64,000 bases of DNA, taken from positions 33,171 to 97,170 of the forward strand of contig CAZACP010000002.1 of assembly GCA_964483665.1 (NCBI GenBank). Reading direction: 5' to 3'. The translations under genes and the position numbers were made by a program. Numbering within the stretch: the first letter of the stretch is position 1; every line of letters starts with the position of its first letter. The notes below the pieces were generated by a model, which was not told the origin of the DNA, did no database searches, and worked only from the letters and a program-made list of their open reading frames with translations. Below, piece by piece: positions 11,097 to 37,318 of this stretch. The stretch comes from an uncultured Candidatus Saccharibacteria bacterium (GTDB taxonomy: Bacteria > Patescibacteriota > Doudnabacteria > UBA920).

Positions 11097-11891
11097 ATGA
11101 AAGTAATAATACTCTGCGGCGGGGAAGGAACCCGTATGAAGGAAGAAACCGAGTTTAAGCCCAAACCTTTGGTGGAAGTGGGCGGTAAGCCCATTTTGTG
11201 GCATATTATGAAAATTTACGCCCATTATGGTTTTAATGAGTTTATTTTGGCTTTGGGCTATAAAGGCAATAGTATAAAAGAATATTTTATGAACTGGAGG
11301 ACTTTTGTCAATGATTTTACTTTAGATACCAGCGAACACTCGTTAAGTTTTCATAACAAAAATCATGAAAATTTTAAAATAACTTTTGTGGATACAGGAC
11401 AAAAAAGTTTGACCGGTGAACGTCTGAGGAGGCTTGAAAAATATATTCCCGATCAGGAATTTATGCTAACTTATGGCGATGGGGTTGCAGATATTGATCT
11501 TGTTAAGCTTTTGGATTTCCATAAACGGCAAAATACCATTGGAACTATTACTGGTGTTAGACCTTTGACGAAGCTTGGAATAGTCCATCAAGACAAACAG
11601 ACAAAAAAAGTAATAGGTTTTAGTCAAAATTTAGTCGGGGATTTCGTTGACAAAGAGAATTACCATGATTTTTTAATTAACGGGGGTTTTATGGTTTTCA
11701 AAAAAGATGTTTTTAAGGATTTAAAACCAAATAGCATGATTGAAGAGTTATTCATTCCTCTGGCTAAACGGGGTCAATTGTCTTTATTTGATCATCAAGG
11801 AAAGTGGAAAGCCATGGACACCTATAAGGAAGTTGAGGAGATGAACGAGTATTGGGAAAAAAATCCTTTTTGGAAAATTTGGGAAAAATAA
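11097..11891 (+). CDS. rfbF: Glucose-1-phosphate cytidylyltransferase
   Basis: MKVIILCGGEGTRMKEETEFKPKPLVEVGGKPILWHIMKIY is an RfbF/DdhA hallmark. Confidence 0.85.
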   Translation: MKVIILCGGEGTRMKEETEFKPKPLVEVGGKPILWHIMKIYAHYGFNEFILALGYKGNSIKEYFMNWRTFVNDFTLDTSEHSLSFHNKNHENFKITFVDTGQKSLTGERLRRLEKYIPDQEFMLTYGDGVADIDLVKLLDFHKRQNTIGTITGVRPLTKLGIVHQDKQTKKVIGFSQNLVGDFVDKENYHDFLINGGFMVFKKDVFKDLKPNSMIEELFIPLAKRGQLSLFDHQGKWKAMDTYKEVEEMNEYWEKNPFWKIWEK

Positions 11892-11893
11892 TT

Positions 11894-12859
11894 ATGGAAA
11901 TAGCATTACAAAATAAGGCTTGCTTGGTAACCGGCGGCACTGGACTTGTAGGTTCCCATGTGGTTGAGAGGCTTTTAGGTTTAAACGCCCAGGTTTTTGT
12001 TGTTGATTTGCAGGTATTATCCAAAAGCTATTTTGATTTAAAAAAATTTTCAGACAAATGCCCGGTATTCATTCAGGATGTAAGGGATGCTGTCAAAATT
12101 AAAGAAATTGTAGATCAAAACAGGATTGAATATATATTTCATTTGGCGGCCCAACCTATTGTAGGAGAGGCATTTTTGCACCCCATGCTGACTCTTGATA
12201 CCAATATTATGGGCACGGTTTCAGTTTTGGAGGCCGCTAAGGAAAATAAAAATATTAAGGCTGTGGTTGTGGCTTCCTCAGATAAAGCATACGGAAAACA
12301 TTCATATAATGTTACGGAAGACCAGCCTTTAAGCGGAGATCATCCATATGATGTTTCAAAGTCAGCGGCTGATTTAATTAGCATGGCTTATTTTCATACT
12401 TATAATCTACCGGTGACGGTTAGCCGATTCGGCAATATTTTTGGGCCGGGTGATTTAAATTTTAGCCGGATTGTTCCCGGGGTTATGGACAGTATTATAA
12501 ATAATAAAAATTTGGAGATACGTAGCGATGGTACTTTTGTACGGGATTATGTTTATGTAAAAGATGTGGCTGATGGTTATGTGGTTTTAGCCGAGCAGAT
12601 TGGCAAAACAGCCGGCCAGGCTTTTAATTTTTCCAGCGGTCATAATTTGTCTGTCCTAAAAATAATTGAAGACATCGAGAAGGTTATAGGAAAAAAGTTA
12701 AAATATAGAGTTGTGAATAGCCAGCAAAATGAAATACCCAGACAAAGTTTGAACTATGAGAAAGTCAGAAAAACACTGGACTGGAAGCCTAAATTCACTT
12801 TTGAACAAGGTATTAAAGAAACTTTTGAGTGGTATAAAAGTTTTTTTAAGCAGGCTTAA
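11894..12859 (+). CDS. rfbG: NAD-dependent NDP-sugar dehydratase (likely CDP-glucose 4,6-dehydratase)
   Basis: The Rossmann motif VTGGTGLVGSHV and the catalytic YDVSK are present. It sits immediately downstream of rfbF. Confidence 0.55.
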   Translation: MEIALQNKACLVTGGTGLVGSHVVERLLGLNAQVFVVDLQVLSKSYFDLKKFSDKCPVFIQDVRDAVKIKEIVDQNRIEYIFHLAAQPIVGEAFLHPMLTLDTNIMGTVSVLEAAKENKNIKAVVVASSDKAYGKHSYNVTEDQPLSGDHPYDVSKSAADLISMAYFHTYNLPVTVSRFGNIFGPGDLNFSRIVPGVMDSIINNKNLEIRSDGTFVRDYVYVKDVADGYVVLAEQIGKTAGQAFNFSSGHNLSVLKIIEDIEKVIGKKLKYRVVNSQQNEIPRQSLNYEKVRKTLDWKPKFTFEQGIKETFEWYKSFFKQA

Positions 12860-12907
12860 AGAAACTTTTATATTAAAAACTGAATTAGAATATTAATAAA
12901 ATATTTT

Positions 12908-14086
12908 ATGAAATATCGTCTAACTTCCGCTGCGAACAATTTGGAGGGCCAGCCTATGTTTAAAGTTCTTGCCAAGGTTAAGGATTTAGAGAGACTTGGA
13001 GAGGATATCGTTCATTTTGAAATAGGTGATCCCGATTTTAACACCCCTGAGAATATTACAAATGCGGCTATCGATTCCCTTAAGCGAGGAGAAACGCATT
13101 ACCAAAGTTCTTACGGAATGACTGAATTTAGAGAATTAGTCAGGGATATAACTTTAAAATCAAGAGGTTTTAAGCCTGATTTAGACCAAGTTTTAATTAC
13201 ACCATCAGCAAATATAATTATTTATTATGCGGTGGCTTGTTTGGTGGAGCCGGGTGATGAGGTTATTGTGCCAGACCCGGGTTTTCCTACTTATAACGCG
13301 GTTTTAAAGTTTTGTGGAGTTAAGGCTGTAGGAATTCCTCTTTTAGAAAAAAATCATTTTCGAATGAGTCCTCAAGATGTTGAAAAAGCTATAACCGAAA
13401 AAACCCGAATGATTATTATGAATTCTCCACAGAATCCCACAGGCTCGGTTATGACTCCTGATGAAATAAATAAAATGGCTGAAATTGCTGAAAAGTACGA
13501 GATTTACCTTTATACTGATGAAATATATTCTCGTATGATTTTTGAGCCTTCTGACAGTTTTTGTTCCCCGGCAAAAAGGGATGGTTGTAAAAAGAGAACG
13601 ATTTTAGCAAATGGATTTTCTAAAGCTTTTGCAATGACAGGCTGGCGTTTGGGGGTATGCATTGCACCATCTGATGTGATTGAGAAAATGGCTTTACTTC
13701 TTCAGACTACTTCTTCTTGCACTTCGCCGTTTATTCAAAGAGCCGGTATGGAAGCAATTTCAGGTAGTCAAAAAAGTGTTGAAGCTATGGTAGCAGAATA
13801 CAAAGCCAGAAGGGATTTGCTAGTAGCAGGACTTAATAATATCCCTGGAATTACTTGTTTAACTCCTGGCGGAGCATTTTATGTTGTACCCAATATTACT
13901 AAAACCGGCATGACCTCAGAAGAATTTGCAAAATTTGCTTTGGAAAAGGCAAAAGTTGCACTTTTGCCTTTAACAAACTTTGGACCAAGCGGAGAGGGCT
14001 ACGTACGTTTGTGTTATGCAACTTCCAGAGAACGCATTCTGGAAGGGTTAAAAAGATTAAGCGCCGCACTTGAGGCGAGAAAATAA
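12908..14086 (+). CDS. Class I/II PLP-dependent aminotransferase (AspAT-like)
   Basis: The NSPQNPTGSVMT motif and the Lys region ANGFSKAFAMTGWRLGV are present. Confidence 0.7.
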   Translation: MKYRLTSAANNLEGQPMFKVLAKVKDLERLGEDIVHFEIGDPDFNTPENITNAAIDSLKRGETHYQSSYGMTEFRELVRDITLKSRGFKPDLDQVLITPSANIIIYYAVACLVEPGDEVIVPDPGFPTYNAVLKFCGVKAVGIPLLEKNHFRMSPQDVEKAITEKTRMIIMNSPQNPTGSVMTPDEINKMAEIAEKYEIYLYTDEIYSRMIFEPSDSFCSPAKRDGCKKRTILANGFSKAFAMTGWRLGVCIAPSDVIEKMALLLQTTSSCTSPFIQRAGMEAISGSQKSVEAMVAEYKARRDLLVAGLNNIPGITCLTPGGAFYVVPNITKTGMTSEEFAKFALEKAKVALLPLTNFGPSGEGYVRLCYATSRERILEGLKRLSAALEARK

Positions 14087-14092
14087 TATATT

Positions 14093-15889
14093 ATGCGAGT
14101 CGCTGATTATATTACTAAGTTTATTGAAAATTTAGGAGTTCAGGATATTTTTACACTTACTGGTGGTGGCGCGATGTTTTTAAATGATGCTGCAGCGCAA
14201 AATCAGAAAATTAGGAGTATTTTTAATCACCATGAACAATCCAGTGCAATGGCCGCTTTTGCTTATAGTAAATACACCGGGAATTGGGGAGTCGCTTATG
14301 TAACGACTGGTTGCGGAGGAACTAATGCCGTAACCGGGCTGCTTGATGCCTGGCAAGATAATATTCCTGTAATGATAGTTTCAGGCCAAGTTAAAAGAGC
14401 GGATACAATTTGGGCAATGCAGCAGCCACTTAGGCAGTATGGTGTTCAGGAAGCGGATATTATCCCTATAGTTCAGTCTTTGTGTAAATATGCAGTAATG
14501 GTTACTGAACCTGAGAAAATTCTTTATCATTTACAAAAGGCAGTCTATTTAGCAACTCATGGAAGGCCCGGGCCTGTTTGGCTTGACGTACCTTCGGATG
14601 TTCAAGGTGCAGTTGTTGATGAAAATAATTTGGTCAAATTTGATCCAAAAGATTTGCAAGTTGATTACAAAAACCAGTGCTCTCAAAATGATCTAGCAGG
14701 TTTAGAAAGATTATTGGGGGCGGCTAAACGGCCTGTTATTATTGCCGGACACGGTATCAGGCTCGCGCATGCTATCTCAACTTTTAAAACGTTTATTGAA
14801 ACTTATAATATTCCTTTTGTCGGAACTTATTTGGCGACGGATTTTGTTCCGGGAGACCACCCTTTATTTATTGGCCGTACCGGCCTTAAGGGAGATAGGG
14901 CAGGTAATTTTGCCATGCAGAACTCTGACCTTATTTTAAGTATTGGTAGTCGTTTGGGTGTTACGGTTATTGGCTATAACCCCAAAGAATTCGCTCGGGC
15001 CGCTAAAATTGTAGTTGTTGATATAGACCCAAATGAACATAAGAAAAAAACAATTCATATTGACCAGTTTATAAATGCTGACGCCAAATGGTTTTTGGAA
15101 AATTTCAAACCGCAGGGACTTGGCGATTTTAAAGAATGGAGAGAAAAGTGCAAAAATTGGAAGGATAATTATCCGGTTTGTCTGCCGGAATACAGGCAAA
15201 TCAAAAAAGGAATAAACTTATATCATTTTGTCGATGAGTTATGTAAGGCTTTGCCGGAAGATGGTGTAATTGTAGCAGACGCTGGTTCGGCGATTTATGC
15301 ACCAGCCCAAGGTTTTAAAGCCAAAACCAACCAGAGACTAATTCTTTCGGGTGCTCAAGCGGAAATGGGTTTTACTTTGCCTGGTTGTATTGGTGTTTGT
15401 GCTGCTAAAAAAGACGGGGAAGTGGTTGGTATAACCGGCGACGGTTCTTTTCAAACTAATTTACAAGAACTACAACTTTTAGTCGAGTATAAATTCCCAA
15501 TTAAGCTTTTTGTATGGAACAATGACGGCTATTTGTCGATTCGGGCTACTCAAACCAAAATTTTTGAGGGCCGTTTATATGGCACAGACAAAAGTAACGG
15601 AGTGTCTTTGCCTGACACCAAAAAAATTACAGAAGCCTATGGCTTGCCTTACGTAAAAATCGAAGGCAGTGAAAATTTAAATGAAAAAATTTCCGCTGTA
15701 CTTAATATGAAAGGACCTGTGGTATGTGAAGTTATGTGCATACGGGATCAGGAAATTGTACCAACAGTTTCTTCAAAAAAGTTACCCGACGGTAGAATGG
15801 TTTCTAAACCTTTGGAAGATTTATACCCGTTCTTAGATAGGGAAGTCTTTAAAAATGAAATGATAGTTGAGCCTTTGTCGGAAGAATAA
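14093..15889 (+). CDS. Thiamine-diphosphate-dependent enzyme, acetolactate-synthase-large-subunit-like (YerE-like candidate)
   Basis: The N-terminal Pyr domain TGGGAMFLNDAAAQ and the C-terminal TPP motif GITGDGSFQTNLQEL...NNDGY are present. At 598 aa it has the full three-domain ALS architecture. Confidence 0.7.
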   Translation: MRVADYITKFIENLGVQDIFTLTGGGAMFLNDAAAQNQKIRSIFNHHEQSSAMAAFAYSKYTGNWGVAYVTTGCGGTNAVTGLLDAWQDNIPVMIVSGQVKRADTIWAMQQPLRQYGVQEADIIPIVQSLCKYAVMVTEPEKILYHLQKAVYLATHGRPGPVWLDVPSDVQGAVVDENNLVKFDPKDLQVDYKNQCSQNDLAGLERLLGAAKRPVIIAGHGIRLAHAISTFKTFIETYNIPFVGTYLATDFVPGDHPLFIGRTGLKGDRAGNFAMQNSDLILSIGSRLGVTVIGYNPKEFARAAKIVVVDIDPNEHKKKTIHIDQFINADAKWFLENFKPQGLGDFKEWREKCKNWKDNYPVCLPEYRQIKKGINLYHFVDELCKALPEDGVIVADAGSAIYAPAQGFKAKTNQRLILSGAQAEMGFTLPGCIGVCAAKKDGEVVGITGDGSFQTNLQELQLLVEYKFPIKLFVWNNDGYLSIRATQTKIFEGRLYGTDKSNGVSLPDTKKITEAYGLPYVKIEGSENLNEKISAVLNMKGPVVCEVMCIRDQEIVPTVSSKKLPDGRMVSKPLEDLYPFLDREVFKNEMIVEPLSEE

Positions 15890-15894
15890 TTTTT

Positions 15895-16791
15895 ATGAGC
15901 GCCCAAAAAAGCATTTTGTTAACCGGAGGTAGCGGTTTTATTGGTAAGCATATTGTTGAGCAGCTTTTTAGTATTTACAATATATTGGCCCCAAAACATT
16001 CCGAGCTTGATATTTTAAACGCTGGCGAAGTTAGACAGTATATAAAAGAACATTCCGTAAAATCAGTCATCCATGCTGCCAATATTGGCGGCACCAGAAA
16101 AAATCAAGACACGCCCGAAGTTTACGAAAAAAATTTACAAATGTTTAAAAATTTATCCGATCTAGAAAATGAGTTGGATAAGATTATTTTTTTTGGTAGC
16201 GGGGCGGAGTACGATAAATCAAAACCAATTACGCGCGTAAAAGAGTCGGACTTTGGGAAAAATATTCCTAAAGACCAATATGGCTTAAGCAAGTTTGAGT
16301 GTTCTAAAATTATTTCCACTATGCGCAATTGCATTAATTTGCGCTGTTTTGGAGTGTATGGAATTTATGAAGACTACGATCTAAGATTTATTTCTTATGC
16401 TATTTTGCGGGCCTTGCTTAATTTACCTATTATAATAAAACAAGATGTTTTGTTTGAATATGTATACGCAAAAGACTTGTGCCTGGTAGTTGAATATTTT
16501 TTAAAACATCACCCGAAAGAAAAATTTTATAATATTGGCACCAATCAGCCAATTTTGCTTAGTGAATTAGCAGAAATAGTAAAGAGTGTAAGCAATAGCC
16601 AGTCGCAAATTTTAGTTTTAAGTTCTGGTTTAGGTAAAGAATACACTTGTAATTCAGAAAAGCTGTTAGTCGAATTAAAGGACTTTAAGTTTACGCCCCT
16701 TAAAGTTGCTATAAAGGAAATGTTTGATTGGTACAAAGCTAACCTTGGTAGTCTAGATTTGAAAAATATTAAAGCAGAATATCCTCTTTAA
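15895..16791 (+). CDS. NAD(P)-dependent NDP-sugar reductase/epimerase (SDR)
   Basis: The motif ILLTGGSGFIGKHI is present. Confidence 0.6.
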   Translation: MSAQKSILLTGGSGFIGKHIVEQLFSIYNILAPKHSELDILNAGEVRQYIKEHSVKSVIHAANIGGTRKNQDTPEVYEKNLQMFKNLSDLENELDKIIFFGSGAEYDKSKPITRVKESDFGKNIPKDQYGLSKFECSKIISTMRNCINLRCFGVYGIYEDYDLRFISYAILRALLNLPIIIKQDVLFEYVYAKDLCLVVEYFLKHHPKEKFYNIGTNQPILLSELAEIVKSVSNSQSQILVLSSGLGKEYTCNSEKLLVELKDFKFTPLKVAIKEMFDWYKANLGSLDLKNIKAEYPL

Positions 16792-16794
16792 GTA

Positions 16795-17682
16795 ATGAAC
16801 AGTATTAAACCCACAATTTTACTTACCGGAGCAACGGGTTTTTTAGGTAGCCATTTGCTTAAAAAATTGGTGAGCTTAGATATATATAATTTAGTTGTAC
16901 TTAAGCGTTCTATTTCTAACACCTTTAGAATTTCGGAAGCCATAGAAAAAGTTCAAACTTACGACTTAGACAAAATTAGCCTTGAAACAGTTTTTGCGCA
17001 TCATAAAGTTGATTACATACTTCATTGCGCAACTGACTACGGCCGTAAGAACAGCCCTGTTCAGCTAATTATAGAAGCTAATTTACTTTTACCGCTTAAA
17101 CTCTTAGAATTAGGCAAACAAAACGGCATAAAGAGTTTTATAAACACCGATACGATTTTAGACAAAAGAATCAACGCATATTCTTTGTCTAAAAAACAAT
17201 TTAAAGAGTGGCTTAATTTGTCCAAAAATTCTTTGGCTTGTGTAAATATTGCACTCGAACATTTTTTTGGGCCCGGCGATGACAAAACCAAATTTTCTAG
17301 TTATATTATAGACTCCTTACTACGAGGAGTGGAATCTATTGACTTAACTAAAGGGGAACAGCAGAGAGATTTTATTTATATAGACGACTGCGTTGACGCT
17401 TTTTTAACTATTATTGATTATGTAAAAAATCTTACCAGTGGTTTTTATGAATTCGAAATTGGCACTAACCAACCAGTGACTATAAAAGATTTCGTGCTTT
17501 TAATAAAAGAACTTTCCGGCAACACAGCCACGGTTTTAAATTTTGGAGCTCTGCCCTATAGGGAAAATGAAGTTATGGAATGCCGTACCAATACCGAACC
17601 TATTTGTAAGCTTGGCTGGGCGCCAAAATTTTCTTTAAAGTTAGGACTATTAAAAACTATTGAAAGAGAGAAGGAGTTATGA
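16795..17682 (+). CDS. NAD(P)-dependent NDP-sugar reductase (SDR; CDP-abequose/paratose-synthase-like)
   Basis: The motif ILLTGATGFLGSHLLKKL is present and the protein is about 295 aa. Confidence 0.6.
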   Translation: MNSIKPTILLTGATGFLGSHLLKKLVSLDIYNLVVLKRSISNTFRISEAIEKVQTYDLDKISLETVFAHHKVDYILHCATDYGRKNSPVQLIIEANLLLPLKLLELGKQNGIKSFINTDTILDKRINAYSLSKKQFKEWLNLSKNSLACVNIALEHFFGPGDDKTKFSSYIIDSLLRGVESIDLTKGEQQRDFIYIDDCVDAFLTIIDYVKNLTSGFYEFEIGTNQPVTIKDFVLLIKELSGNTATVLNFGALPYRENEVMECRTNTEPICKLGWAPKFSLKLGLLKTIEREKEL

Positions 17683-18707
17683 AATATTTAATTACTGGAG
17701 GAGCTGGATTTTTAGGATCAAATTTAGCCGCCGAAGTTTTAAAAAGAAAAGAGAAATTAGTCATTTATGACAATCTCTCCCGCATGGGAAGTGAGAAGAA
17801 TTTAGAATGGCTTAAGACCCAAGGTGAGTTTGAATTTTTAAAAGAAACTACCGCAGATTTTAAATCTCTGACTGAAATTTTAAAAAATTTTCAGCCTGAC
17901 GTAATTTTCCATTTGGCCGGCCAGGTGGCAATGACAACATCTATTTTTGACCCACGTAAAGATTTTGAAACCAACGCGTTAGGCAGCTTTAATGTTTTAG
18001 ATGCAGTTAGGCTATACGCACCTAATGCTGCGGTTATTTATTCTTCCACCAACAAAGTCTACGGGGATTTAGAGTATTTGAATTATAAAGAAACCAATAC
18101 CCGTTACGAGCTGACCGATTTCCCGAAAGGACTGCCGGAGTCAGTTAGTTTGGACTTTGCTTCGCCTTACGGCTGCTCTAAAGGCAGCGCGGATCAGTAT
18201 ATGCACGATTTTTACAAAACTTTTAAAGTCAAAACCGTAGTATTTAGGCACTCTTCTATGTACGGGGGCCGCCAGTTTTCTACCTTTGACCAGGGCTGGC
18301 TGGGCTGGTTTTGTGAGCAGGCGGTGTTGTCTAAATTAGGAAAGCTTTCAAAACCCTTCACTATTTCCGGCAATGGTAAACAAGTTCGCGATGTTTTGCA
18401 TTCACAAGATATGGTAGCTTTATATTTTAAAGCAGCAGAAAATATAAGCAGTATTGCCGGAGAAGTTTTTAACATAGGCGGGGGACAAGAAAATAGCTTG
18501 TCTTTAATTGAACTTTTTTCTATTTTAGAAAAACAGCTAGAAGTTAAATTAAGTTTTACCCAATTGCCAACCAGGCAGAGTGACCAAAAAGTTTTTGTGG
18601 CTGACATTGCCAAAGCTAAACGGCTAATTGGCTGGGAGCCTAAAGTTTTGGCAAAAGAGGGTATACGGCAAATGTTGGAATGGGTTAAGAGCATAAACAA
18701 TGAATGA
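17679..18707 (+). CDS. NAD-dependent NDP-sugar epimerase (CDP-paratose/tyvelose 2-epimerase-like)
   Basis: The motifs LITGGAGFLGSNLA and SSTNKVYGDL are present. Confidence 0.6.
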   Translation: MKYLITGGAGFLGSNLAAEVLKRKEKLVIYDNLSRMGSEKNLEWLKTQGEFEFLKETTADFKSLTEILKNFQPDVIFHLAGQVAMTTSIFDPRKDFETNALGSFNVLDAVRLYAPNAAVIYSSTNKVYGDLEYLNYKETNTRYELTDFPKGLPESVSLDFASPYGCSKGSADQYMHDFYKTFKVKTVVFRHSSMYGGRQFSTFDQGWLGWFCEQAVLSKLGKLSKPFTISGNGKQVRDVLHSQDMVALYFKAAENISSIAGEVFNIGGGQENSLSLIELFSILEKQLEVKLSFTQLPTRQSDQKVFVADIAKAKRLIGWEPKVLAKEGIRQMLEWVKSINNE

Positions 18708-21700
18708 AGTTGAAATAAGCGTTGTTATACCAGCCTATTTAGAAGCCGAAAATTTGCGGCTGCTTTTACCGCGTCTTAAAAATATTTTAGCAAAACTATC
18801 TTCCAGTTCTGAAATAGTGGTAGCAGATACGCTAGAGCCAAAAGATGACACTCCTGTGGTATGCAAGGAGCAAGGAGTAGTGTATTTAAATAGGCAAGGC
18901 GGCAATACTTATGGCGATGCTGTAAGAACCGGTATAAAAAATGCCAAAGGTAAATATATTGTCTTTATGGATGCAGACGGTTCTCACGATCCGGAGTTTA
19001 TAGAAAAACTATATGCGGAAAGAACGGCACACGATGTGGTCATAGCCTCTCGCTATGTACAAGGCGGCAATACGGACAATACTTTTATATCAAAGCTTAT
19101 GAGCCTTACGGTTAACAAATTGTTTGCCCTTGGCCTTGGGCTGCCTTATAAAGACGTTTCCAATAGCTTTAAACTCTACAACGCCGAGCAATTAAAAAAT
19201 TTGCAACTCTACTGCAATAACTTTGACATAATAGAGGAAATTTTGTATAAGCTCAAAAAAAATAAGAAAAATTTGTTGGTAAAAGAAATCCCTTTTTATT
19301 TTAAAAAAAGGATTTATGGCGAAACCAAAAGAGAGTTGGTAAAGTTTATATTTTCTTACGCCCGCACAATGTTTCGCCTAAGATTTGGAAATTCTGGCAA
19401 CAAAATGACTAGAATACCCGAGCTTTATAGCAAATTAAAACAGAGTAGTTTTGTTCGGTTCTGCATAGTAGGAACTATAGGCGTTATTACTAACCTGGTG
19501 GTTTTTTATTTAACCAGGCATTACTTAGCCCTTAGTGTAAGCTTAGCTGCTGTTGCTGCTTTTTTGGTCGCAGTTACGCAAAACTACTATTTTAACCACA
19601 AATGGACATTTAGCTTTGACGAGCAATCAAAGCCCAATTTATTTAGTTTTATAAAGTATGCGGGTGTTAACTTGTTTAGTTTGGCTGTTAATTTGATAGT
19701 TACCAACTTAGTCCTGTTTTTTGCGGGCAAAGGCTTTTCTGAAAGCTTGGCCCAGGCTTTTGGCATATTAACCGGGTTTGTTTTAACTTACGTGGGTTCT
19801 TCGGTGTTTATTTTTGCCAAAAAAGACAACCTCTCTTTGCTGTTTAAAGAGCGCTTTGTTATGGCCAACAGGGTTGAATATTTGTTAAAGTTAAAAAATA
19901 ATTTGTTTTATTTTTTTAAAAATGAGTACAAAGTTTTTATAAGTTTTGCCATTTTGTTTTTAGGGCTTTTATATTTAGGGCAAGTAGTTTCGGTGATTGG
20001 CAATAAAACTATTTTACAACCAGTTACTATTGAGGCTTATAATCAAGCCGACCAAAACCCTGAGTCTTTAGAGCGCTTTATGCAGCTTGCGAGGGCTGGT
20101 AACTATACTTTCCTAAAACCCAATTTAGAATCCAAGCAGCCTTGGACAGTCGAAAATGTTTTTTTTAAAAAAGTCCTGGTTGGAATGAGTGAAAAAGACC
20201 TTAAAACTTTAAAAGTCATTTCGGTAAAAATAGGTAATTCTGATTTCGCATATACTCAAGATGAATTTCTAGATTCTTGGAACAGTGTTGACCTAAATCT
20301 TTTAAAAGGCAATTTGTCCGGAAAGGAAGATGTAGATTTTAAGTTGTTTGAATCTCCGGAAGCTTTAAGCCTGCCAAAGTCGCACATTCCTGTTTACAAA
20401 AGTTTTTTTGGCAGCATAATAAACTGGGGAGGGGACAGTACTTTGTTTTTAAAACCCCTGAAAAATGCTTTAGGGGCTTGGGTTTTGGTTTTGTTTTTGA
20501 CTATTTTTATAAGGGTTGTTTATTTAATCGTGCGAAATAGTAGTTTTTTAGAGAGCCATGAACAAGAAGAGTTAAGAAAATACATAGCTTTTAGTTTAAG
20601 TATATATACCAGTGTTTTTTGTTTGCTTTTGTTAAATATTTTTTTAAAGCTTTTTTACAAGCCCAATACCGCGGGTATTTTGTCGCAAGCAAAACTAGAC
20701 TACGTTAATTACTTTTTCAAATCTATAAGGCCAAAGCCGGTTGAAAGGCTTCAGTTTGTCCTAAGCACAGTTTTGTCGCCGTTTTTGGTTTATTTTTCTT
20801 ACTTATGGTTTGAAAAGAAAAATTTTTTTTCTAAAGCTTTGTACAAAGTCCTTTTCTTTTTTAACCTATTTTTGTTTGCCAGTGTTATTTATTTAGGTTT
20901 GGCTGTGAGCGGTTTCTTTTTTGTCAGAGATAGTTTTTTTGCAGGCTTTTACTTCCGCTATGTGTATGCTTTAATTTTATTTCCGCTGTGCTTTGTGTTT
21001 TTGTATTACAAAAATCCGCCTAAGAGCGTACTATTATTTTTAAAGCTTCTTGGGCTTTTGGCAGTTGTGACAGTATTTAGTTTGGGAATAGTTAATTTAT
21101 TTGACGGGTATTTGCCCTTAGATTTAGACCCGGTAATTTACCCGCAAATTCAAGTATTGTCCGGTAAAAATTTACTCGCGCCGGTTACCAGTTTTTATGG
21201 CCTTTACGCGTTTTTCCTACAGCCCATTTTTAAACTAATTGGCTTTTCGGTTTTAAAATTTTCTTTAGTAATGTCCAGCTTAATGCTATTAAGTTTTTGG
21301 TTTTTGAAAAAAATGTTAAGACGCGCAGTAGAGAACACCACCATTTATTTATTAGGTTTTCTTGCTATAGTTTTTTACACTGTGTTAGCTACAAGAACAA
21401 TGCCGGAATACTATTTTCAGTATTGGCCAATTCGTTTTATATTTCCAGCTTTAGGTTTTTACCTAATTACCTGGTATTTAAAAAATAAAAGTCAGTTAGC
21501 TTATTTTTTCGGAATTTTGCTTAGTGCAATTGGAGTTTTGTGGAATTTAGATGTTGGTCTTGTTTTGTTTATAGCTCTCATGGCAACTTTAATTTTAGAT
21601 GCTTGGTGTGGTAAACAAAACATAAAAGATTTTTTTAAAAAGACATTTTGGCATATAGTTTACGGAGCGCTCGGTTTAATTTTAGTAGTAGGCTTTTTTG

Positions 21701-22527
21701 CAGAAGTTACTCATTTACAAAGTGGTATGTGGCCAGACGTAGCTCTGCTTTTGCGCTATCAAAAGTTGTTTGTTTCAGGCTACCTAAATATTCCTATGGT
21801 TCCACCCCCACATACTTGGACTGTAGTTTTACTTGTTTATTTAATTGGCCTTATAAGTGTAGCTAAAGACTTAGTAAAAAAAGAAGTTACTTACCAAAGC
21901 AAAATTATTTTTTTTAGTGGTATTTTAGGCCTTGGTTTGTTTGCTTACTACGAAGGGCAGTCGAGCGACATAACTTTGTTCCGTACTTCTTACCCTGCGC
22001 TTATAATTGTTATTATGTTTGTTGACAAGCTTTGGACAGAGCTTAAAGCCAAGGGACAATTAATTTTTGGTAAATTTGTAATTCTTAGTTTTTTGTTATT
22101 TGTCCTTTTTTCCGTACCGTTTAGTTTAATAGCTAACTTAGGTAGTTACTACGTTTTTGCTAAAGACGCTGTAAAGAATATTCAGCTTAAAGACTCTAGC
22201 TATTTAAGGAATGTAAAGTTTATAAAACAAAATACTCAACCAAACGAACGAGTTTTTATATTGGCCAGTCCGCAGCAAGGGGTTTACTACACAGAAAGCA
22301 AAACTTTGCCGGTAGTAACTGTGGCTTCGGTCGCGGATATAGTTTTTCCCAAAGACTTGGATGTCCAATATAATTTTTTACAGACCAATAAGGCCACAAA
22401 AGTTTTTGCATTAATGCCTTTGGAAAACTATGATAAATTTGACCCGCGGCTTAAAAAAATTATTATGGAGCAATACAAACAAGTTTTAAAGTCCGAAGAT
22501 GGAATGGTATACTTTTTACCCAAATAA
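18700..22527 (+). CDS. 1275-aa fusion: GT2 polyprenyl-phosphate sugar synthase (GtrB/DPM1-like) + GtrA-like 4-TM domain + large polytopic GT-C-like domain with a C-terminal soluble domain
   Basis: Residues 1-230: VVIPAYLEAENL...DADGSHDP. Around residues 245-370: FVRFCIVGTIGVITNLVVFYL (GtrA family). Residues 380-1275 carry more than 20 hydrophobic segments. Confidence 0.7.
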   Translation: MNEVEISVVIPAYLEAENLRLLLPRLKNILAKLSSSSEIVVADTLEPKDDTPVVCKEQGVVYLNRQGGNTYGDAVRTGIKNAKGKYIVFMDADGSHDPEFIEKLYAERTAHDVVIASRYVQGGNTDNTFISKLMSLTVNKLFALGLGLPYKDVSNSFKLYNAEQLKNLQLYCNNFDIIEEILYKLKKNKKNLLVKEIPFYFKKRIYGETKRELVKFIFSYARTMFRLRFGNSGNKMTRIPELYSKLKQSSFVRFCIVGTIGVITNLVVFYLTRHYLALSVSLAAVAAFLVAVTQNYYFNHKWTFSFDEQSKPNLFSFIKYAGVNLFSLAVNLIVTNLVLFFAGKGFSESLAQAFGILTGFVLTYVGSSVFIFAKKDNLSLLFKERFVMANRVEYLLKLKNNLFYFFKNEYKVFISFAILFLGLLYLGQVVSVIGNKTILQPVTIEAYNQADQNPESLERFMQLARAGNYTFLKPNLESKQPWTVENVFFKKVLVGMSEKDLKTLKVISVKIGNSDFAYTQDEFLDSWNSVDLNLLKGNLSGKEDVDFKLFESPEALSLPKSHIPVYKSFFGSIINWGGDSTLFLKPLKNALGAWVLVLFLTIFIRVVYLIVRNSSFLESHEQEELRKYIAFSLSIYTSVFCLLLLNIFLKLFYKPNTAGILSQAKLDYVNYFFKSIRPKPVERLQFVLSTVLSPFLVYFSYLWFEKKNFFSKALYKVLFFFNLFLFASVIYLGLAVSGFFFVRDSFFAGFYFRYVYALILFPLCFVFLYYKNPPKSVLLFLKLLGLLAVVTVFSLGIVNLFDGYLPLDLDPVIYPQIQVLSGKNLLAPVTSFYGLYAFFLQPIFKLIGFSVLKFSLVMSSLMLLSFWFLKKMLRRAVENTTIYLLGFLAIVFYTVLATRTMPEYYFQYWPIRFIFPALGFYLITWYLKNKSQLAYFFGILLSAIGVLWNLDVGLVLFIALMATLILDAWCGKQNIKDFFKKTFWHIVYGALGLILVVGFFAEVTHLQSGMWPDVALLLRYQKLFVSGYLNIPMVPPPHTWTVVLLVYLIGLISVAKDLVKKEVTYQSKIIFFSGILGLGLFAYYEGQSSDITLFRTSYPALIIVIMFVDKLWTELKAKGQLIFGKFVILSFLLFVLFSVPFSLIANLGSYYVFAKDAVKNIQLKDSSYLRNVKFIKQNTQPNERVFILASPQQGVYYTESKTLPVVTVASVADIVFPKDLDVQYNFLQTNKATKVFALMPLENYDKFDPRLKKIIMEQYKQVLKSEDGMVYFLPK

Positions 22528-22554: not shown

Positions 22555-22707
22555 ATGCACTATATTTGTACCGGCGGATGTAAAGGAGTTTCCGAAACTC
22601 CCGGCACTTGCCAAGCTAAAGACTGCCCTTTGTATGGTCACGAGCTTCAGCCTTGCGACTGCACAGACGGAAAACATTACGGTAAGCAAGACGAAAAAGC
22701 CGAATAA
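22555..22707 (+). CDS. Small Cys-rich protein (50 aa, 6 Cys), hypothetical
   Basis: Translation is MHYICTGGCKGVSETPGTCQAKDCPLYGHELQPCDCTDGKHYGKQDEKAE. It lies between the giant GT gene and its own terminator, and was not in the ORF track because it is shorter than 60 aa. Confidence 0.35.
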   Translation: MHYICTGGCKGVSETPGTCQAKDCPLYGHELQPCDCTDGKHYGKQDEKAE

Positions 22708-25144: not shown

Positions 25145-26143
25145 ATGCTTAAAGTGGGGATTATAGGAACCGGGTTTGGTATGTATGGGCATTTGCCGGC
25201 TTTCGCAACTACAAATAATTGCCAAGTAGTTAGCATATGTGGAGAAAAAAGTGAACGTCTTTCAAAGTTTTGTAAGAAGTATAAAGTTGAAAAAGTTTAT
25301 AGTGACTGGAAAGAGATGCTAAAAGCTGAAAAGCTAGACGCTGTAAGTATAGCCGTGGTGCCCGACGCACAATATGAAATTGCAAAGTTTGCTATAAAAA
25401 AAGGTATAAATGTTTTTGCTGAAAAACCTTTGACCGCAAATCTTAAACAAGCAGAAGAACTTTACAGGCTTTCACAAAAAGCTAAGATTACGACCGCGGT
25501 AGATTTTATTTTTCCTCAAGTACCAGAATTTAAAAAAGTTAAAGAATTACTTGTAAAAAAAGAAATAGGGGAACTAGAATATATAAAAGCCGAATGGGAT
25601 TTTTTAAGCCACGATTTGGCTCGTAAGCTAAAATCGTGGAAAACAGACTCAAAAAAAGGCGGAGGTGCGCTAGCTTACTATTTCTCACATGTTTTGTACT
25701 ACTTAACTGACTTTTTAGGAGAAATAACTTTTAAAAAAGCTCAGCTAATTCATTCCCAAAAAAGTTTAAGCGGCGGTGAAGCGGGTGTGGATGTATTTTT
25801 TAAGGCTAAAAAGGCTACAGGTATAGCGCATCTAAACTGTTCGGCAGAAGGCTTAAATAGGCACAGTATAATTTTTACCGGGGGAAAGGGGGGTATTGTT
25901 TTAGAAAATAAACAAGATGTAGTACAAGGTTTTGAAATTACAGTCTACAGGAATTCAAAAGTAAAAAAAGTTAAAGCCGGCAAAAAATTTATTGCAAACG
26001 AAGACCAGCGGGTAGCTATAGTTAAAGAAAATGTTTCCAAGTTTGTGGAAGGCTGTTTAAAACATAAGCCAATTAAGCCTTCTTTCAAAGAAGGCTTAGA
26101 AGTTCAAAAGTTAATTAGTCATTTACGAAAAATATCAATATGA
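25145..26143 (+). CDS. Gfo/Idh/MocA-family NAD(P)-dependent oxidoreductase
   Basis: The motif MLKVGIIGTGFGMYGHLPAF is present. Confidence 0.65.
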   Translation: MLKVGIIGTGFGMYGHLPAFATTNNCQVVSICGEKSERLSKFCKKYKVEKVYSDWKEMLKAEKLDAVSIAVVPDAQYEIAKFAIKKGINVFAEKPLTANLKQAEELYRLSQKAKITTAVDFIFPQVPEFKKVKELLVKKEIGELEYIKAEWDFLSHDLARKLKSWKTDSKKGGGALAYYFSHVLYYLTDFLGEITFKKAQLIHSQKSLSGGEAGVDVFFKAKKATGIAHLNCSAEGLNRHSIIFTGGKGGIVLENKQDVVQGFEITVYRNSKVKKVKAGKKFIANEDQRVAIVKENVSKFVEGCLKHKPIKPSFKEGLEVQKLISHLRKISI

Positions 26144-27357
26144 AAAAAGAAAAATATTTAAGAGTTCCCTATGGTTTTTCCGTACACGGTAAAGAAGAAA
26201 TTGCCGCGGTGGTAAAAGTTTTAGAAGGCAATACCGCAATGGGCGACTACACCAAAGAGTTTGAGGAAAAAGTCGCTAAAATGTTTGGTAAAAAATATGG
26301 CATAATGGTCAACTCCGGCAGCAGCGCCAACTTGCTGGCTTTTGAACTTTTAAATTTGCCTAAAGGTAGTGAAGTTATTACACCGATTCTTACTTTTTCC
26401 ACCACTGTGGCGCCAATTGTTCAGAAAGGCTTGGTACCGGTGTTTTGTGATGTAAAAAAACATACTTTGCAAATTAATATTGACCAGTTGGAAAAGGCTA
26501 TTACCAAAAAAACCCGCGCGCTTATGATTCCGTCTTTAATGGGCAATATACCAGATTTGCCAAGACTACAAAAAATTGCCAGAAAACATAAAGTATTTTT
26601 AATAGAAGATTCTTGTGATACTTTGGGAGGCCAGATAAACGGTCAGCCCACCGGCAAATTTAGCGATATTTCCATAACCAGTTTTTATGGTAGTCATGTT
26701 ATTAACGGGGCTGGGGGTGGTGGAATGATTATGGTTAACAATCCAAAGTGGGCTGAGCGTTTAATGATTTTGCGCGGGTGGGGCAGGCGTTCAAGTTTGT
26801 TTGGGGAAAAACAAAATAGTGAACAATTGAAAAATCGGTTTCGCAGCAAGCTTTCAGGTGTGCCTTACGATGAGAAATTTGTTTTTAGCGAAATTGGCTA
26901 CAATTTTTTGCCTTTGGAAATTTCTTCCGCGTTTGCACTGGAGCAGTTAAAAAAATTTCCAAGTTTTAAAGCTGTTAGAAAAAATAACTGGGAAAATTTG
27001 AAAAAGTATTTCTTTTTAAATAATAAATATTTTAATTACGGCGAGACAACCCCCAAAACAGAAAGTATTTGGCTTGCCTTCCCTATATTTATAAAGCCCG
27101 AAGCGCCTTTTAGTCGCTTTGAGCTTGTTAAATTTTTAGAAGACCATAATATTCAAACCAGACCTGTATTTACCGGTAATATACTCAAACAGCCGGGTTT
27201 TAAAAACTTTAAATATAAAACTCCTTTTACTGACTATCCGAATGCTGAATATATAATGCGAAATGCGTTCGTTGTCGGTTCTCATCACGGTCTGGATCAA
27301 AAGCAGATTAACCACATAAAAAACAGCATTAGTGATTTCATTGCTAAGTATGAATAA
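26140..27357 (+). CDS. DegT/DnrJ/EryC1 fold-type-I enzyme of the PMP-dependent sugar 3-dehydrase type (E1/DdhC or ColD-like)
   Basis: The family motif normally reads SFHxxK. Here it reads ITSFYGSHVIN, with His where the Schiff-base Lys sits, as in E1 and ColD dehydrases. Confidence 0.65.
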   Translation: MKKEKYLRVPYGFSVHGKEEIAAVVKVLEGNTAMGDYTKEFEEKVAKMFGKKYGIMVNSGSSANLLAFELLNLPKGSEVITPILTFSTTVAPIVQKGLVPVFCDVKKHTLQINIDQLEKAITKKTRALMIPSLMGNIPDLPRLQKIARKHKVFLIEDSCDTLGGQINGQPTGKFSDISITSFYGSHVINGAGGGGMIMVNNPKWAERLMILRGWGRRSSLFGEKQNSEQLKNRFRSKLSGVPYDEKFVFSEIGYNFLPLEISSAFALEQLKKFPSFKAVRKNNWENLKKYFFLNNKYFNYGETTPKTESIWLAFPIFIKPEAPFSRFELVKFLEDHNIQTRPVFTGNILKQPGFKNFKYKTPFTDYPNAEYIMRNAFVVGSHHGLDQKQINHIKNSISDFIAKYE

Positions 27358-34074: not shown

Positions 34075-35832
34075 ATGGATATCAAACAGCTTAATGCTGC
34101 TTTAAAAGAAAAGCGGATATTAAACGAGGAAAAAATAAAAGCCCTGGAAAAAGACAGGCTTTCTTCCAAGAACCCAAGCGCTTGGGAAGATTTTTTAGTG
34201 GAAAAAAAGCTTTTGTTAGAGGAAGATTTGCTAAAAATAAAGGCGGAAATACTTAGCGTGCCGGTGGTGGATTTAAAAAATACCCAAATTTCTCAAGATG
34301 TTTTAAATTTAGTGCCAGAGCCTATTGCTCACAGGCATAAAGTTATAAGTTTTGCTAAAACCAAAGAAGGACTTTCTTTGGCAATGGTAGACCCCGACGA
34401 CATTCAAACCAGGGATTTTATACAAAAAAAGACAGGCCTTAAAATTCAAACTTTTTTAATTGGCAAAACTAGCTTAGACTCCGGGCTTTCTAAGTATCAC
34501 TCAAGTTTGGAAAAAGAAATTAAGCATTTGTTTACCCCGGAAGGCAAGTCCTTAACCGAAGGCGCTAAAGCCGAAGGGGAGAGCGCGGACGACGGCCTTA
34601 AGAAAATGGCCGAAGAGATTCCCGTTATACGCGTGGTAGACACTTTGCTTGAATACGCTGTATTTGAAAAAGCTTCCGACATTCATATTGAGCCGCAGGA
34701 AAGCGCGGTCACGGTTAGGTACCGTATAGACGGCGTGCTGCACGACGTTATGACTTTGCCTAAGGTAATTCAGGCGGCTATTGTTGCCCGCGTGAAGGTT
34801 TTGTCTAACTTAAAAATAGACGAACACAGGCTGCCTCAGGACGGCAGGTTTAAAATTGAAAAAGAAGGCTATAAGTTCAGTTTGCGCGTTTCTACCATAC
34901 CTATTTTTGACGGGGAAAAAGTAGTTATACGTCTTTTGGACGAATCTGCCAAAGCTCAGAGCCTGGAAGATTTGGGTTTTGAAAAATCTGCTTACGAAGC
35001 TATTTCTAGGAATGTAAAAAAGCCCCACGGCATGCTTTTAATTACCGGACCTACGGGAAGCGGCAAATCTACCACGCTTTATACCTTGCTTTCAATGCTA
35101 AATACTAAGTCTGTAAATATTTCAACCATTGAAGACCCTGTCGAATATCGAATTTCCGGCACCAACCAAATGCAGGTAAACCCGAAAATCGGCTTAACTT
35201 TTGCCATGGGTTTGCGTTCGCTTTTAAGGCAAGATCCTAACATAATTATGATTGGTGAAATCCGCGACAAAGAAACCGCGGAAGAAGCGGTGCACGCGGC
35301 AATGACCGGCCACGTTGTGTTTTCCACGCTTCATACCAATACCGCTGCCGGAGCTTTGCCCAGGCTTTTAGATATTGGAGTCGAAGCTTACCTTATTGCC
35401 TCCACCGTAAATGCCGTACTTGCTCAGCGTTTGGTTAGAGTAGTCTGCAAAGACTGCAAGACCAAGTATGAGTTAGACGACGCCATGATAGACAGTCTTT
35501 CCAAAATTTTTCATTTAGACAAATTAATGCCCGTGCTTACCAGGGAAGGGGTTGTTCCGGCAAAAGCAAAAAGCATAAAAGACCTGACTTTTTATAAAGG
35601 CGCGGGCTGCGACAAATGCAATAACAGCGGCTATAAAGGCCGTATGGGCATACACGAAATTTTGGAGGTTACTCCAGAAGTGGCCGACTTAATTATGCAG
35701 CACAAGAGCGCGCAGGAAATACAGGACGAAGCCGAAAAGCACGGCATGGTTTTAATGTGGGAGGACGGTTTTATAAAAGCCTTAAAGGGCATAACCACAG
35801 TTGACGAAATACTTAGAGTGAGCAAGGAATAA
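34075..35832 (+). CDS. pilB: Type IV pilus assembly ATPase PilB (GspE family)
   Basis: The Walker A motif GPTGSGKSTT is present, along with the tetracysteine CKDC...CDKC and an N-terminal GspE-N domain. Confidence 0.85.
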   Translation: MDIKQLNAALKEKRILNEEKIKALEKDRLSSKNPSAWEDFLVEKKLLLEEDLLKIKAEILSVPVVDLKNTQISQDVLNLVPEPIAHRHKVISFAKTKEGLSLAMVDPDDIQTRDFIQKKTGLKIQTFLIGKTSLDSGLSKYHSSLEKEIKHLFTPEGKSLTEGAKAEGESADDGLKKMAEEIPVIRVVDTLLEYAVFEKASDIHIEPQESAVTVRYRIDGVLHDVMTLPKVIQAAIVARVKVLSNLKIDEHRLPQDGRFKIEKEGYKFSLRVSTIPIFDGEKVVIRLLDESAKAQSLEDLGFEKSAYEAISRNVKKPHGMLLITGPTGSGKSTTLYTLLSMLNTKSVNISTIEDPVEYRISGTNQMQVNPKIGLTFAMGLRSLLRQDPNIIMIGEIRDKETAEEAVHAAMTGHVVFSTLHTNTAAGALPRLLDIGVEAYLIASTVNAVLAQRLVRVVCKDCKTKYELDDAMIDSLSKIFHLDKLMPVLTREGVVPAKAKSIKDLTFYKGAGCDKCNNSGYKGRMGIHEILEVTPEVADLIMQHKSAQEIQDEAEKHGMVLMWEDGFIKALKGITTVDEILRVSKE

Positions 35833-35942
35833 ATAAAATGACAAAAACGACGAAAATGAGCAAAAATGACAAAAATAGACTGCAATCTGCAGCAATATTT
35901 TTGTCATTTTTTTAATTTTTGTTCATTTTTGTCATTTAACCT
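35833..35942. promoter_or_regulatory. Highly palindromic intergenic element between pilB and pilC
   Basis: aaatgacaaaaa ... ctgcaatctgcag ... tttttgtcattt. The near-perfect dyad symmetry spans about 90 nt. Confidence 0.5.
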
Positions 35943-37154: not shown

Positions 37155-37178
37155 TACTACAGAGCTGTTGTTTTTCCG

Positions 37179-37295
37179 CACTACAGATGCCTACAGAAAT
37201 AAATTTATACATAAACCAAGCAATATAATTTTAAGAAATAAATATTATTAACTTCTTTAACTTTTAAATAGTAATTCTGTAGGCATTTGTAGTTT
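37179..37295. repeat. Inverted-repeat pair CTACAGATGCCTACAGAA / TTCTGTAGGCATTTGTAG flanking a 76-bp AT-rich core (copy A)
   Basis: Seen directly. The arms lie at 37179-37198 and 37275-37295. Confidence 0.7.
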
Positions 37296-37318
37296 ATCTT
37301 ATTCGTAGCTCAGTAGTT

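Follow-up and report, generated by a model that had tools for sequence, protein, structure and literature searches.

Can a whole three-component glycosylation system be carried by one gene? Systems made of a GT2 glycosyltransferase, a small flippase and a GT-C glycosyltransferase rank among the main origins of diversity in surface glycans and serotypes, and their GT-C enzymes are hard to spot by sequence. In the Gtr logic, the polyprenyl-phosphate sugar made by the GT2 enzyme is handled or flipped by a GtrA-family protein, after which a polytopic GT-C enzyme adds the sugar outside the membrane (PMC11127046). The question is raised by a 64,000-nucleotide stretch of contig CAZACP010000002.1 (the window; assembly GCA_964483665.1, an uncultured Candidatus Saccharibacteria bacterium). 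It contains an uninterrupted open reading frame (ORF) on the forward strand, from the ATG at 18700 to the stop codon at 22525-22527, which encodes 1275 amino acids (aa). A first-pass annotation had described this ORF as a fusion of GtrB-, GtrA- and GtrC-like parts in this order (B-A-C), and both the coordinates and the description proved correct. The ORF is a genuine gene fusion in a bacterium of the Patescibacteria (candidate phyla radiation, CPR). This placement follows from the TypA protein of the window, which shares 86% identity with proteins labelled Candidatus Doudnabacteria and 79% with one labelled Patescibacteria group, and from the synteny of the locus with a metagenome-derived CPR genome. 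I estimate at about 0.7 the probability that its product is a fused Gtr/Arn-type system that adds a sugar outside the membrane, complete in one polypeptide. The main value of the locus is the light that it sheds on a large orphan GT-C family, more than the fusion itself.

The ORF 18700..22527 (1275 aa plus stop) has two competing ORFs within it, of 63 and 72 aa, and its product has an estimated mass of about 143 kDa. All features described below lie on the forward strand. A cytoplasmic GT2 catalytic domain of the GT-A fold (aa 1-235, 18700..19404), which resembles dolichyl-phosphate mannose synthase (DPMS) and other polyprenyl-phosphate glycosyl synthases, is joined through the junction FGNSGNKMT (19384..19410) to a four-helix transmembrane (TM) domain of the GtrA/DPMS type (aa 253-372, 19456..19815). 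From there on, the layout was taken from hydropathy and an AlphaFold model. A K/R-rich linker (aa 373-409, 19816..19926) is predicted to be cytoplasmic and fits the positive-inside rule, because the 39-residue loop aa 373-411 has nine K/R. It is followed by a CPR-specific N-terminal extension of the GT-C part (19927..20532), in which a beta-rich domain of about 150 residues (aa 435-583) is flanked by TM helices at aa 410-434 and 584-611. The GT-C core with 13 TM helices (aa 618-1145, 20551..22134) comes next. The chain ends with an alpha/beta domain of 130 residues (aa 1146-1275, 22135..22524), conserved family-wide; its secondary structure was read from the AlphaFold model, and the topology count predicts it to be extracytoplasmic. 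It is probably an acceptor-side domain.

The N-terminal part resembles known enzymes. Pfam Glycos_transf_2 (PF00535) matches aa 7-162 well over its gathering score (E 4.8e-22, 79 bits against a cut-off of 23.3). GtrA_DPMS_TM (PF04138, IPR007267) matches aa 253-372 along its whole profile (1-117 of 117; E 2.8e-19, 69.9 bits against 26.1), and hydropathy gives four hydrophobic helices at aa 251-372. Thus, the DPM1/GtrB-like domain and the GtrA-family domain of the first-pass annotation are both present. The best match among PDB sequences is the DPMS of Pyrococcus furiosus (PfDPMS, 5MLZ; E 3.5e-28), with query residues 4-365 aligned to residues 23-365 of the 374-residue chain. The DAD motif of PfDPMS is conserved in the HMMER alignment as D91-A-D93 (18970..18978; residues checked), the DxD metal/nucleotide-sugar motif of the GT2 domain. 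GtrB sll0501 (E 2.3e-8) and ArnC (about 1e-8) come next. The top NCBIfam matches of the GT2 domain are AglJ, ArnC, dolichyl-P hexose transferase and PpgS, all far under the equivalog cut-offs. Since PfDPMS matches the first 380 aa from one end to the other, the "GtrB-GtrA" part is the known type-III DPMS architecture and no new fusion. What differs is that the PfDPMS chain, with the same GT2 catalytic domain fused to a GtrA-like four-helix TM domain, ends there, whereas the window protein continues with about 900 aa of GT-C. Close relatives have the GT2 (234-243 aa) and the GtrA part as separate genes, and the window protein is thus intermediate between the DPMS and the GtrB/GtrA descriptions. 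From crystal states of PfDPMS, a 2026 paper suggested that the TM domain might flip the product, and the pocket residues defining this type are absent from ordinary GtrA (PMC12992685).

What is the long C-terminal part of 895 residues, called C below? The first-pass annotation had expected a GT-C-like part of about 900 aa with a C-terminal soluble domain, and had named missing GT-C domain hits as evidence to the contrary. At the level of sequence such hits were indeed missing: the C domain has no significant profile match to the named GT-C families (PMT_2/GT39/GT83, YfhO, STT3/GT66, DUF2723 and others), no similarity to ArnT in Pfam and PDB-sequence profile searches, and the family members of cultured organisms have no Pfam match at E <= 0.01. 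It was structure, and only structure, that overturned this. A model of the C part was made by AlphaFold from an alignment of 15 sequences, with a mean predicted local distance difference test score (pLDDT) of 80.2 and a predicted template-modelling score (pTM) of 0.81. Judged from this model, C has the GT-C fold, that is, the polytopic helical fold of the PglB, ArnT, PMT, ALG and Aft enzymes. In the structural comparison it scored 17.1 with Pmt4 and with ALG3, 16.6 with ALG12, 16.4 with Pmt2, 16.1 with ArnT (394 residues aligned), 15.8 with AglB, 15.3 with PIG-M, 14.4 with PIG-U and with AftA, 13.8 with AftB and with PimE, 12.0 with PglB, 9.5 with DPY19 and 8.2 with AftD. Foldseek independently returned ALG12, PglB, STT3, ArnT, DPY19 and AftA at probability 1.00.

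On which side of the membrane does this domain work? When the helices are counted from the cytoplasmic end of the GtrA domain, the beta domain, every conserved motif and the C-terminal domain are predicted to be outside, and the K/R content is 21% in the predicted inside loops versus 8% in the outside loops. Since GtrA contributes four helices and the CPR-specific extension two, both even numbers, the core would have the same N-in orientation as in relatives that consist of the core only. By this count, the GT-C active site is predicted to face the extracytoplasmic side. EL1 (extracytoplasmic loop 1 of the core, aa 653-683, 20656..20748), which comes after core TM1, contains two short helices in the model, at C-part positions 277-287 and 290-293, and carries the signature P-[EK]-P-x-E. 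The final residue of the signature, E682, is found in 147 of 149 aligned family members, while position 679 is E in 122 sequences and K in 24; the window protein has K. The motif YFQYWPIR (aa 905-912, 21412..21435), predicted to lie on the outer face from the helix count, represents a family-wide Y-x-Q-Y-x-P-x-R, with R912 in 152 of 152 sequences and P910 in 151. In the same set, W948 and N949 of the motif LWNLD (aa 947-951, 21538..21552) are invariant, and residue 951 is D or E throughout. Other invariant or near-invariant residues are Y833-G834, G1027, H1038-x-W1040 and Y-Y-[QE]-G-[RQ]-S. By their conservation, E682, D951 and R912 are candidates for catalytic or phosphate-binding residues, R912 being a candidate phosphate ligand.

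Do related genomes keep the three parts as separate genes? The ORFs of 80 C-family loci were searched with the GT2 and GtrA parts of the window protein, an iterated profile being used for GtrA, and the split versions for which the first-pass annotation had proposed a search were found. In three loci (L007, L008 and L010), GT2, GtrA and C are three adjacent genes in the B-A-C order. In L004, a related CPR metagenome-assembled genome (MAG) with which the window locus is syntenic, a GT2 gene is followed by a GtrA-C fusion, and in L006, L017, L021 and L047 a GT2 gene lies immediately 5' of C. Close GT2 homologues (E about 1e-65 to 1e-70) were also found near core-only C members in Myxococcales, Rariglobus and Legionella MAGs. 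A GtrA gene is present in 21 of the 80 loci, often adjacent to C, in Paenibacillus, Fontibacillus, Bacteroidales, Methanocella and Methanoperedens. The C homologues themselves occur as stand-alone proteins of 850-910 aa, as GtrA-C fusions of about 1040 aa (P0002, P0003, P0004 and P0011) and as one GT2-C fusion of 945 aa (P0005); among them, the triple fusion is limited to the window protein and P0001, its allele in another sample. Taken together as a Rosetta stone, the fusion, the split relatives and the conserved operons argue for the C family as the GT-C partner of a polyprenyl-phosphate-sugar synthase. This is a genomic argument that assigns an unannotated family of about 2000 clusters to a DPMS-like synthase.

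Some rumen Bacteroidales MAGs (L066 7286-11502, L068 7773-11997, L057 and L058) have a C gene followed by a GtrA gene, with a thiamine diphosphate (ThDP) enzyme upstream. In L066 and L068 a divergent GT2 gene follows GtrA, so that the order is C-A-B, the opposite of the CPR arrangement.

How widespread is the C family? An exhaustive profile search of 1.84 billion cluster representatives gave 2658 proteins with E <= 1e-3, of which 2006 reached E <= 1e-10; the family is put at about 2000 clusters at 50% identity. Most of these proteins are 650-700 aa long and cover only profile positions of about 230-892, which correspond to the core. Some have a lectin-like domain, Laminin_G_3, at the C terminus. 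Among species-representative genomes, a scan found 129 relatives of the C part. Full-length versions occur in Patescibacteria (Saccharibacteria, Magasanikbacteria, Paceibacterota, Doudnabacteria and others). Core-only versions occur in the bacterial groups Legionella, Achromobacter, Paraburkholderia, Caballeronia, Paenibacillus, Fontibacillus, Bacteroidales, Planctomycetota and Elusimicrobia and in the methanogen-related archaea Methanocella and Methanoperedens. The family thus reaches archaea and genera with pathogens (Legionella, Achromobacter and Paraburkholderia). UniProt names two members automatically as 'RgtA/B/C/D-like domain-containing'. By sequence and model, C appears to be a phylogenetically broad GT-C family of its own, outside the named sequence families. 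No description of GT2-GtrA-GT-C fusions or of the C family in CPR bacteria was found in the literature, although the coverage was limited and novelty is thus unproven.

Another triple fusion, P0008 (837 aa, from a high-GC organism), has the same order of GT2 (E 1.4e-33), GtrA_DPMS_TM (E 1.2e-20) and a polytopic part, and is 29% identical to the window protein over the N-terminal 29%. Its C-terminal part belongs to a different, PMT_2-like family (GT39/GT83-type). It has no match among PDB sequences, and its GT-C nature is suggested by a sub-threshold PMT_2 match only (E 3e-4, 21.5 bits against a cut-off of 26.1). The order of P0008 implies that the triple architecture probably arose more than once.

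How might the fused protein work? In a first step, the cytoplasmic GT2 domain, with D91 and D93, would move a sugar from a nucleotide sugar to polyprenyl phosphate. The most likely candidate for the donor would be a CDP-hexose or CDP-3,6-dideoxyhexose made by the upstream genes, the last of which encodes a homologue of CDP-tyvelose 2-epimerase. In a second step, the GtrA/DPMS four-helix domain, which is proposed to take part in handling or flipping the carrier lipid, would anchor the synthase and may help the polyprenyl-phosphate sugar to reach the outer leaflet, a role likewise proposed for GtrA, GtcA and PfDPMS (PMC11127046, PMC12992685). In a third step, the GT-C domain, with its motifs on the outer face, would pass the sugar to an extracytoplasmic acceptor. 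With this single-chain target, the coupling of donor synthesis to carrier handling and extracytoplasmic transfer could be studied in a single sample, and so could the old question of whether GtrA-type domains flip lipid-linked sugars.

In function, the window protein would resemble the Gtr, Arn, CsbB-GtcA-YfhO and GT136-type three-component systems (PMC11127046). With the GtrA, GtrB and Gtr* (GtrC) proteins of Shigella and Salmonella phages it shares the three-step logic and the GtrA Pfam family. In contrast to those three proteins, it is one polypeptide in a CPR host without prophage context; its GT2 domain is nearer to the archaeal DPMS than to GtrB, its GT-C domain belongs to an unrelated, unnamed sequence family, and its donor may derive from a CDP-sugar whereas theirs is UDP-glucose. 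The likeness to GtrB-GtrA-GtrC claimed by the first-pass annotation therefore stands for the proposed working logic, while the protein lies outside the phage Gtr families. The idea of a prophage-borne gtr cassette was dropped: sugar-nucleotide, glycosyltransferase and pilus genes surround the fusion, and no phage genes were seen among them. In the ArnC/ArnE-ArnF/ArnT system, the flippase is the SMR-like ArnE/F instead of GtrA, and the sugar is UDP-Ara4N, destined for lipid A, instead of the CDP-hexose proposed here. Another parallel is the recently defined three-component system ORF12-15 of Citrobacter youngae, the founder of GT136, in which a GT-C unclassified until then, found through an AlphaFold model and gene context, adds an unusual sugar, a pentofuranose, after polymerisation (PMC11127046). 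There, the donor synthase, which is a phosphoribosyltransferase, and the MATE flippase are separate proteins, whereas GT2 and GtrA domains are fused in the window protein. The Citrobacter GT-C has an extra carbohydrate-binding domain, as have the C-family members with Laminin_G_3.

Several observations weigh against this assignment. I know of no precedent for the use of a CDP-sugar by a DPMS-like GT2. The region aa 380-1275 has no Pfam or NCBIfam match even at E <= 1, a profile search of the C domain against all PDB sequences gave one irrelevant match only, and RefSeq labels the members from cultured organisms as 'hypothetical protein'. The residue right after core TM1 is D, N or E in 79 of 98 ungapped sequences; it is D in most relatives and N in the window protein. 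A related GT2 or GtrA gene lies within 8 kb of C in 34 of the 80 loci, often adjacent and in several phyla, whereas neither is nearby in the other 46, and the neighbourhood frequencies in this study come without a matched background control, enrichment having been judged informally. Of the residues that define type-III DPMS (N248, N277, R341 and the gate F338), two of four are kept in the HMMER alignment, which is the only basis of this comparison: N277 and F338 have equivalents, while R341 is replaced by Thr and N248 by a Thr beside an Asn. Furthermore, the translocation of polyprenyl-phosphate sugars by GtrA is a proposal only, even for the founding members (PMC11127046, PMC12992685).

Which sugar would be transferred? 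The gene directly upstream (17679..18707) encodes a short-chain dehydrogenase/reductase (SDR) resembling CDP-tyvelose 2-epimerase (PDB 9RL0, TaTyvE, E 1.2e-154; Salmonella 1ORR, E 9.8e-131). It ends at 18707 and thus overlaps the fusion ORF by 8 nt (ATGAATGA), as had been noticed in the first-pass annotation. Further upstream, a sugar-nucleotide cassette (11097..17682) encodes a glucose-1-phosphate cytidylyltransferase-like protein (TIGR02623, 268 bits, cut-off 300), a CDP-glucose 4,6-dehydratase-like protein (TIGR02622, 211 bits, cut-off 278), a class I/II aminotransferase, a YerE-like ThDP enzyme and two SDRs. The YerE-like enzyme (14093-15889) has its best PDB match in JanthE (8RPH, 5e-122), ahead of acetolactate synthases (5e-71), and JanthE was described as YerE-like (PMC12188165). 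An RfbH-like protein is encoded in the same locus (26140..27357; NCBIfam PRK15407 RfbH, E 1.5e-103, 347 bits, cut-off 423). In the 3,6-dideoxyhexose pathway, RfbH acts as the 3-dehydrase (E1). Thus, RfbF-, RfbG-, RfbH-, TyvE- and YerE-like genes occur together, as in a CDP-3,6-dideoxyhexose/yersiniose-type gene set. Because the RfbF/G/H-like scores are all under the equivalog cut-offs, the exact products are not fixed. Downstream of the fusion gene there are also a C-methyltransferase and a GFO-type oxidoreductase.

Similar genes recur around the C family. A block of an SDR (SDR295), a TyvE-like gene and a GT2 gene lies beside the C gene in nine CPR loci, and a TyvE-like gene and a GT2 gene are near C in three non-CPR loci. 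Homologues of the ThDP enzyme occur within 8 kb of C in 26 of the 80 loci (17 of them scoring at least 300 bits), and RfbH-like genes in 17. From the TyvE-like overlap, the Rfb/YerE-like genes and the conserved neighbourhoods, a CDP-pathway hexose is therefore proposed, tentatively, as the donor of the GT2 domain: it might be a tyvelose-, paratose- or mannose-like sugar or a yersiniose-like branched one. It is a bolder guess, and one I would not bet on, that the dedicated job of the C family is to transfer such 3,6-dideoxy or branched hexoses (tyvelose-, paratose- or yersiniose-like), carried on polyprenyl phosphate, to surface glycans on the outer side of the membrane. 3,6-Dideoxy and branched hexoses are generally added by cytoplasmic transferases, and to my knowledge a route from a CDP-sugar through a polyprenyl-phosphate sugar to a GT-C has not been described for them. 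If this assignment were true, the triple fusion would be a Rosetta stone for the sugar of the C family, and the use of a CDP-sugar by a DPMS-like GT2 would be new. The link to CDP-dideoxyhexose and YerE-like genes gives a prediction that is testable in culturable species. C-family members are present in Legionella maceachernii ATCC 35300 (L071) and in a Tatlockia MAG (L055); WP_058453671.1 is an L. maceachernii member, and Paenibacillus monticola and Fontibacillus phaseoli have homologues too. Yersiniose A was reportedly found in the lipopolysaccharide of Legionella micdadei and L. maceachernii by Sonesson and Jantzen in 1992, as listed among the references of PMC7867332.

Among the rival explanations, the one that survives best leaves the CDP-sugars to other enzymes. 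It takes the GT2 and GtrA domains as an ordinary DPMS/Ppm-type synthase that gives a polyprenyl-phosphate hexose such as mannose or glucose to several pathways. The fusion to the GT-C would then be uninformative on the CDP-dideoxyhexose genes, which would feed cytoplasmic glycosyltransferases of the same locus. The closest solved relative of the N-terminal part is indeed a GDP-mannose-using DPMS, and several ordinary GT2, GT-D and GT10 genes of the locus could use CDP-sugars. TaTyvE, the closest solved relative of the upstream gene product, turns CDP-glucose into CDP-mannose, and interconverts the two (PMC13098431). Against these points stand the 8-nt overlap of the TyvE-like gene with the fusion ORF, the nine CPR and three non-CPR loci with TyvE-like and GT2 genes beside C, and the YerE-like or other ThDP genes in 26 of the 80 loci. 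I regard the ordinary synthase as possible, though on the unlikely side.

Might the GT-C part instead ignore the polyprenyl-monophosphate sugar made by the GT2 domain, and act as an oligosaccharyltransferase or ligase on polyprenyl-diphosphate glycans, like PglB, AglB and STT3, or as a PIG-U-like scaffold? All four names are among the structural matches, but the best matches include users of dolichyl-phosphate mannose or undecaprenyl-phosphate sugars (Pmt4, ALG3, ALG12, ArnT and PimE). C is fused, or linked closely and in conserved order across phyla, to a DPMS-like GT2 and GtrA; this speaks for a single sugar linked through a monophosphate as the donor, and the invariance of E682, R912, W948, N949 and D/E951 argues for an active site. 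An enzyme of the diphosphate type or a scaffold is thus improbable, and a fused Gtr/Arn-type system is preferred.

Could the fusion be an artefact? Three other samples, whose contigs follow three naming styles (ENA ERZ3756521, NODE_; ENA ERZ27283013, k141_; and Logan SRR6837569), encode exactly this 1275-aa protein, and this makes a private frameshift artefact very unlikely. A fourth sample (ERZ27282915) has a mosaic allele of the same length, 94% identical (locus L085, protein P0001). At the first junction, the syntenic L004 has a GT2 gene ending in ...LKLRFSK* and a next gene that begins 7 nt on in another frame. In the window, in contrast, the frame reads through a short linker, FGNSGNK, into M236, at the position where the separate GtrA-C gene of L004 has its start codon. 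Relatives keep such genes in this order, either a few nucleotides apart or overlapping by as little, so that a single indel could merge them, but an assembly or sequencing artefact (a frameshift or a lost stop codon) that joined two or three of them can be dismissed as most improbable, since the same product recurs across samples, both junctions are in frame, the first gained a six-residue linker and did not merely lose a stop codon, and GtrA-C fusions recur in P0002, P0003, P0004 and P0011 at 44-53% identity. P0001/L085 was rejected as an independent witness of the fusion, because it is 100% identical to the window over nucleotides 1-2850 of the ORF and thus over both junctions; across the 3 kb upstream the identity is 99.9%.

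The same allele is informative for the 3' third of the gene. In the last 975 nucleotides or so, from TM10 through the C-terminal domain (window 21550..22524, L085 5851-6825), the identity falls abruptly to 65-81%. The ratio of nonsynonymous to synonymous substitution rates (dN/dS) is 0.055-0.10 in this divergent part, which is therefore under purifying selection. It looks as if this third of the fusion gene had been swapped between strains by recombination, as a variable and probably acceptor-side module. Such an allele swap is reminiscent of the serotype-specific diversity of GtrC.

What is the acceptor? The fusion gene lies in a surface-glycan locus that also has genes for a Wzx-like flippase, for an initiating phosphoglycosyl transferase, for transferases of the GT2, GT-D and GT10 types and for an acyltransferase; type IV pilus genes come after it. 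The acceptor is probably, as the simplest guess, the glycan built by the surrounding locus. A carbohydrate acceptor fits because some C-family members carry lectin-like domains. Pilins are a conceivable alternative acceptor. Genes for a PilB-like ATPase (T2SSE), a PilC-like protein (T2SSF) and PilM lie directly 3' of the glycan locus (34075-38371). At its other end, the window has a gene for a GT-D fold glycosyltransferase (PF08759, E 4.5e-77) together with a GT10 alpha-1,3-fucosyltransferase-like gene (1461-3451), which is unexpected for a genome-reduced bacterium. As the fusion shows, genome-reduced CPR bacteria invest in elaborate surface glycosylation.

The window has a near-complete toolkit for CDP-3,6-dideoxyhexoses and branched sugars in a CPR genome (11097-18707 and 23839-27357). 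No E3 reductase of the RfbI/AscD type was recognised among the ORFs scanned in the window. The class I/II (aspartate-type) aminotransferase gene lies directly 5' of the YerE-like gene (12908-15889), a pairing that is also found in L004, L008 and L021. The aminotransferase might supply the 2-oxo acid donor for carboligation, which is only an idea.

Directly downstream of the fusion gene lies the Cys-rich mini-ORF that had been mentioned in the first-pass annotation (22555..22707, 50 aa with 6 Cys). It was called as a gene on L002 and L003. The protein has no Pfam or NCBIfam match; perhaps it is a small protein that binds metal and is linked to the sugar pathway. Its sequence, MHYICTGGCKGVS..PGTCQ..CPL.GH.L.PCDC.DGKHYGK, is conserved in the related MAG L004 (6602-6754), where the copy has a different position in the syntenic sugar locus, between two SDR genes.

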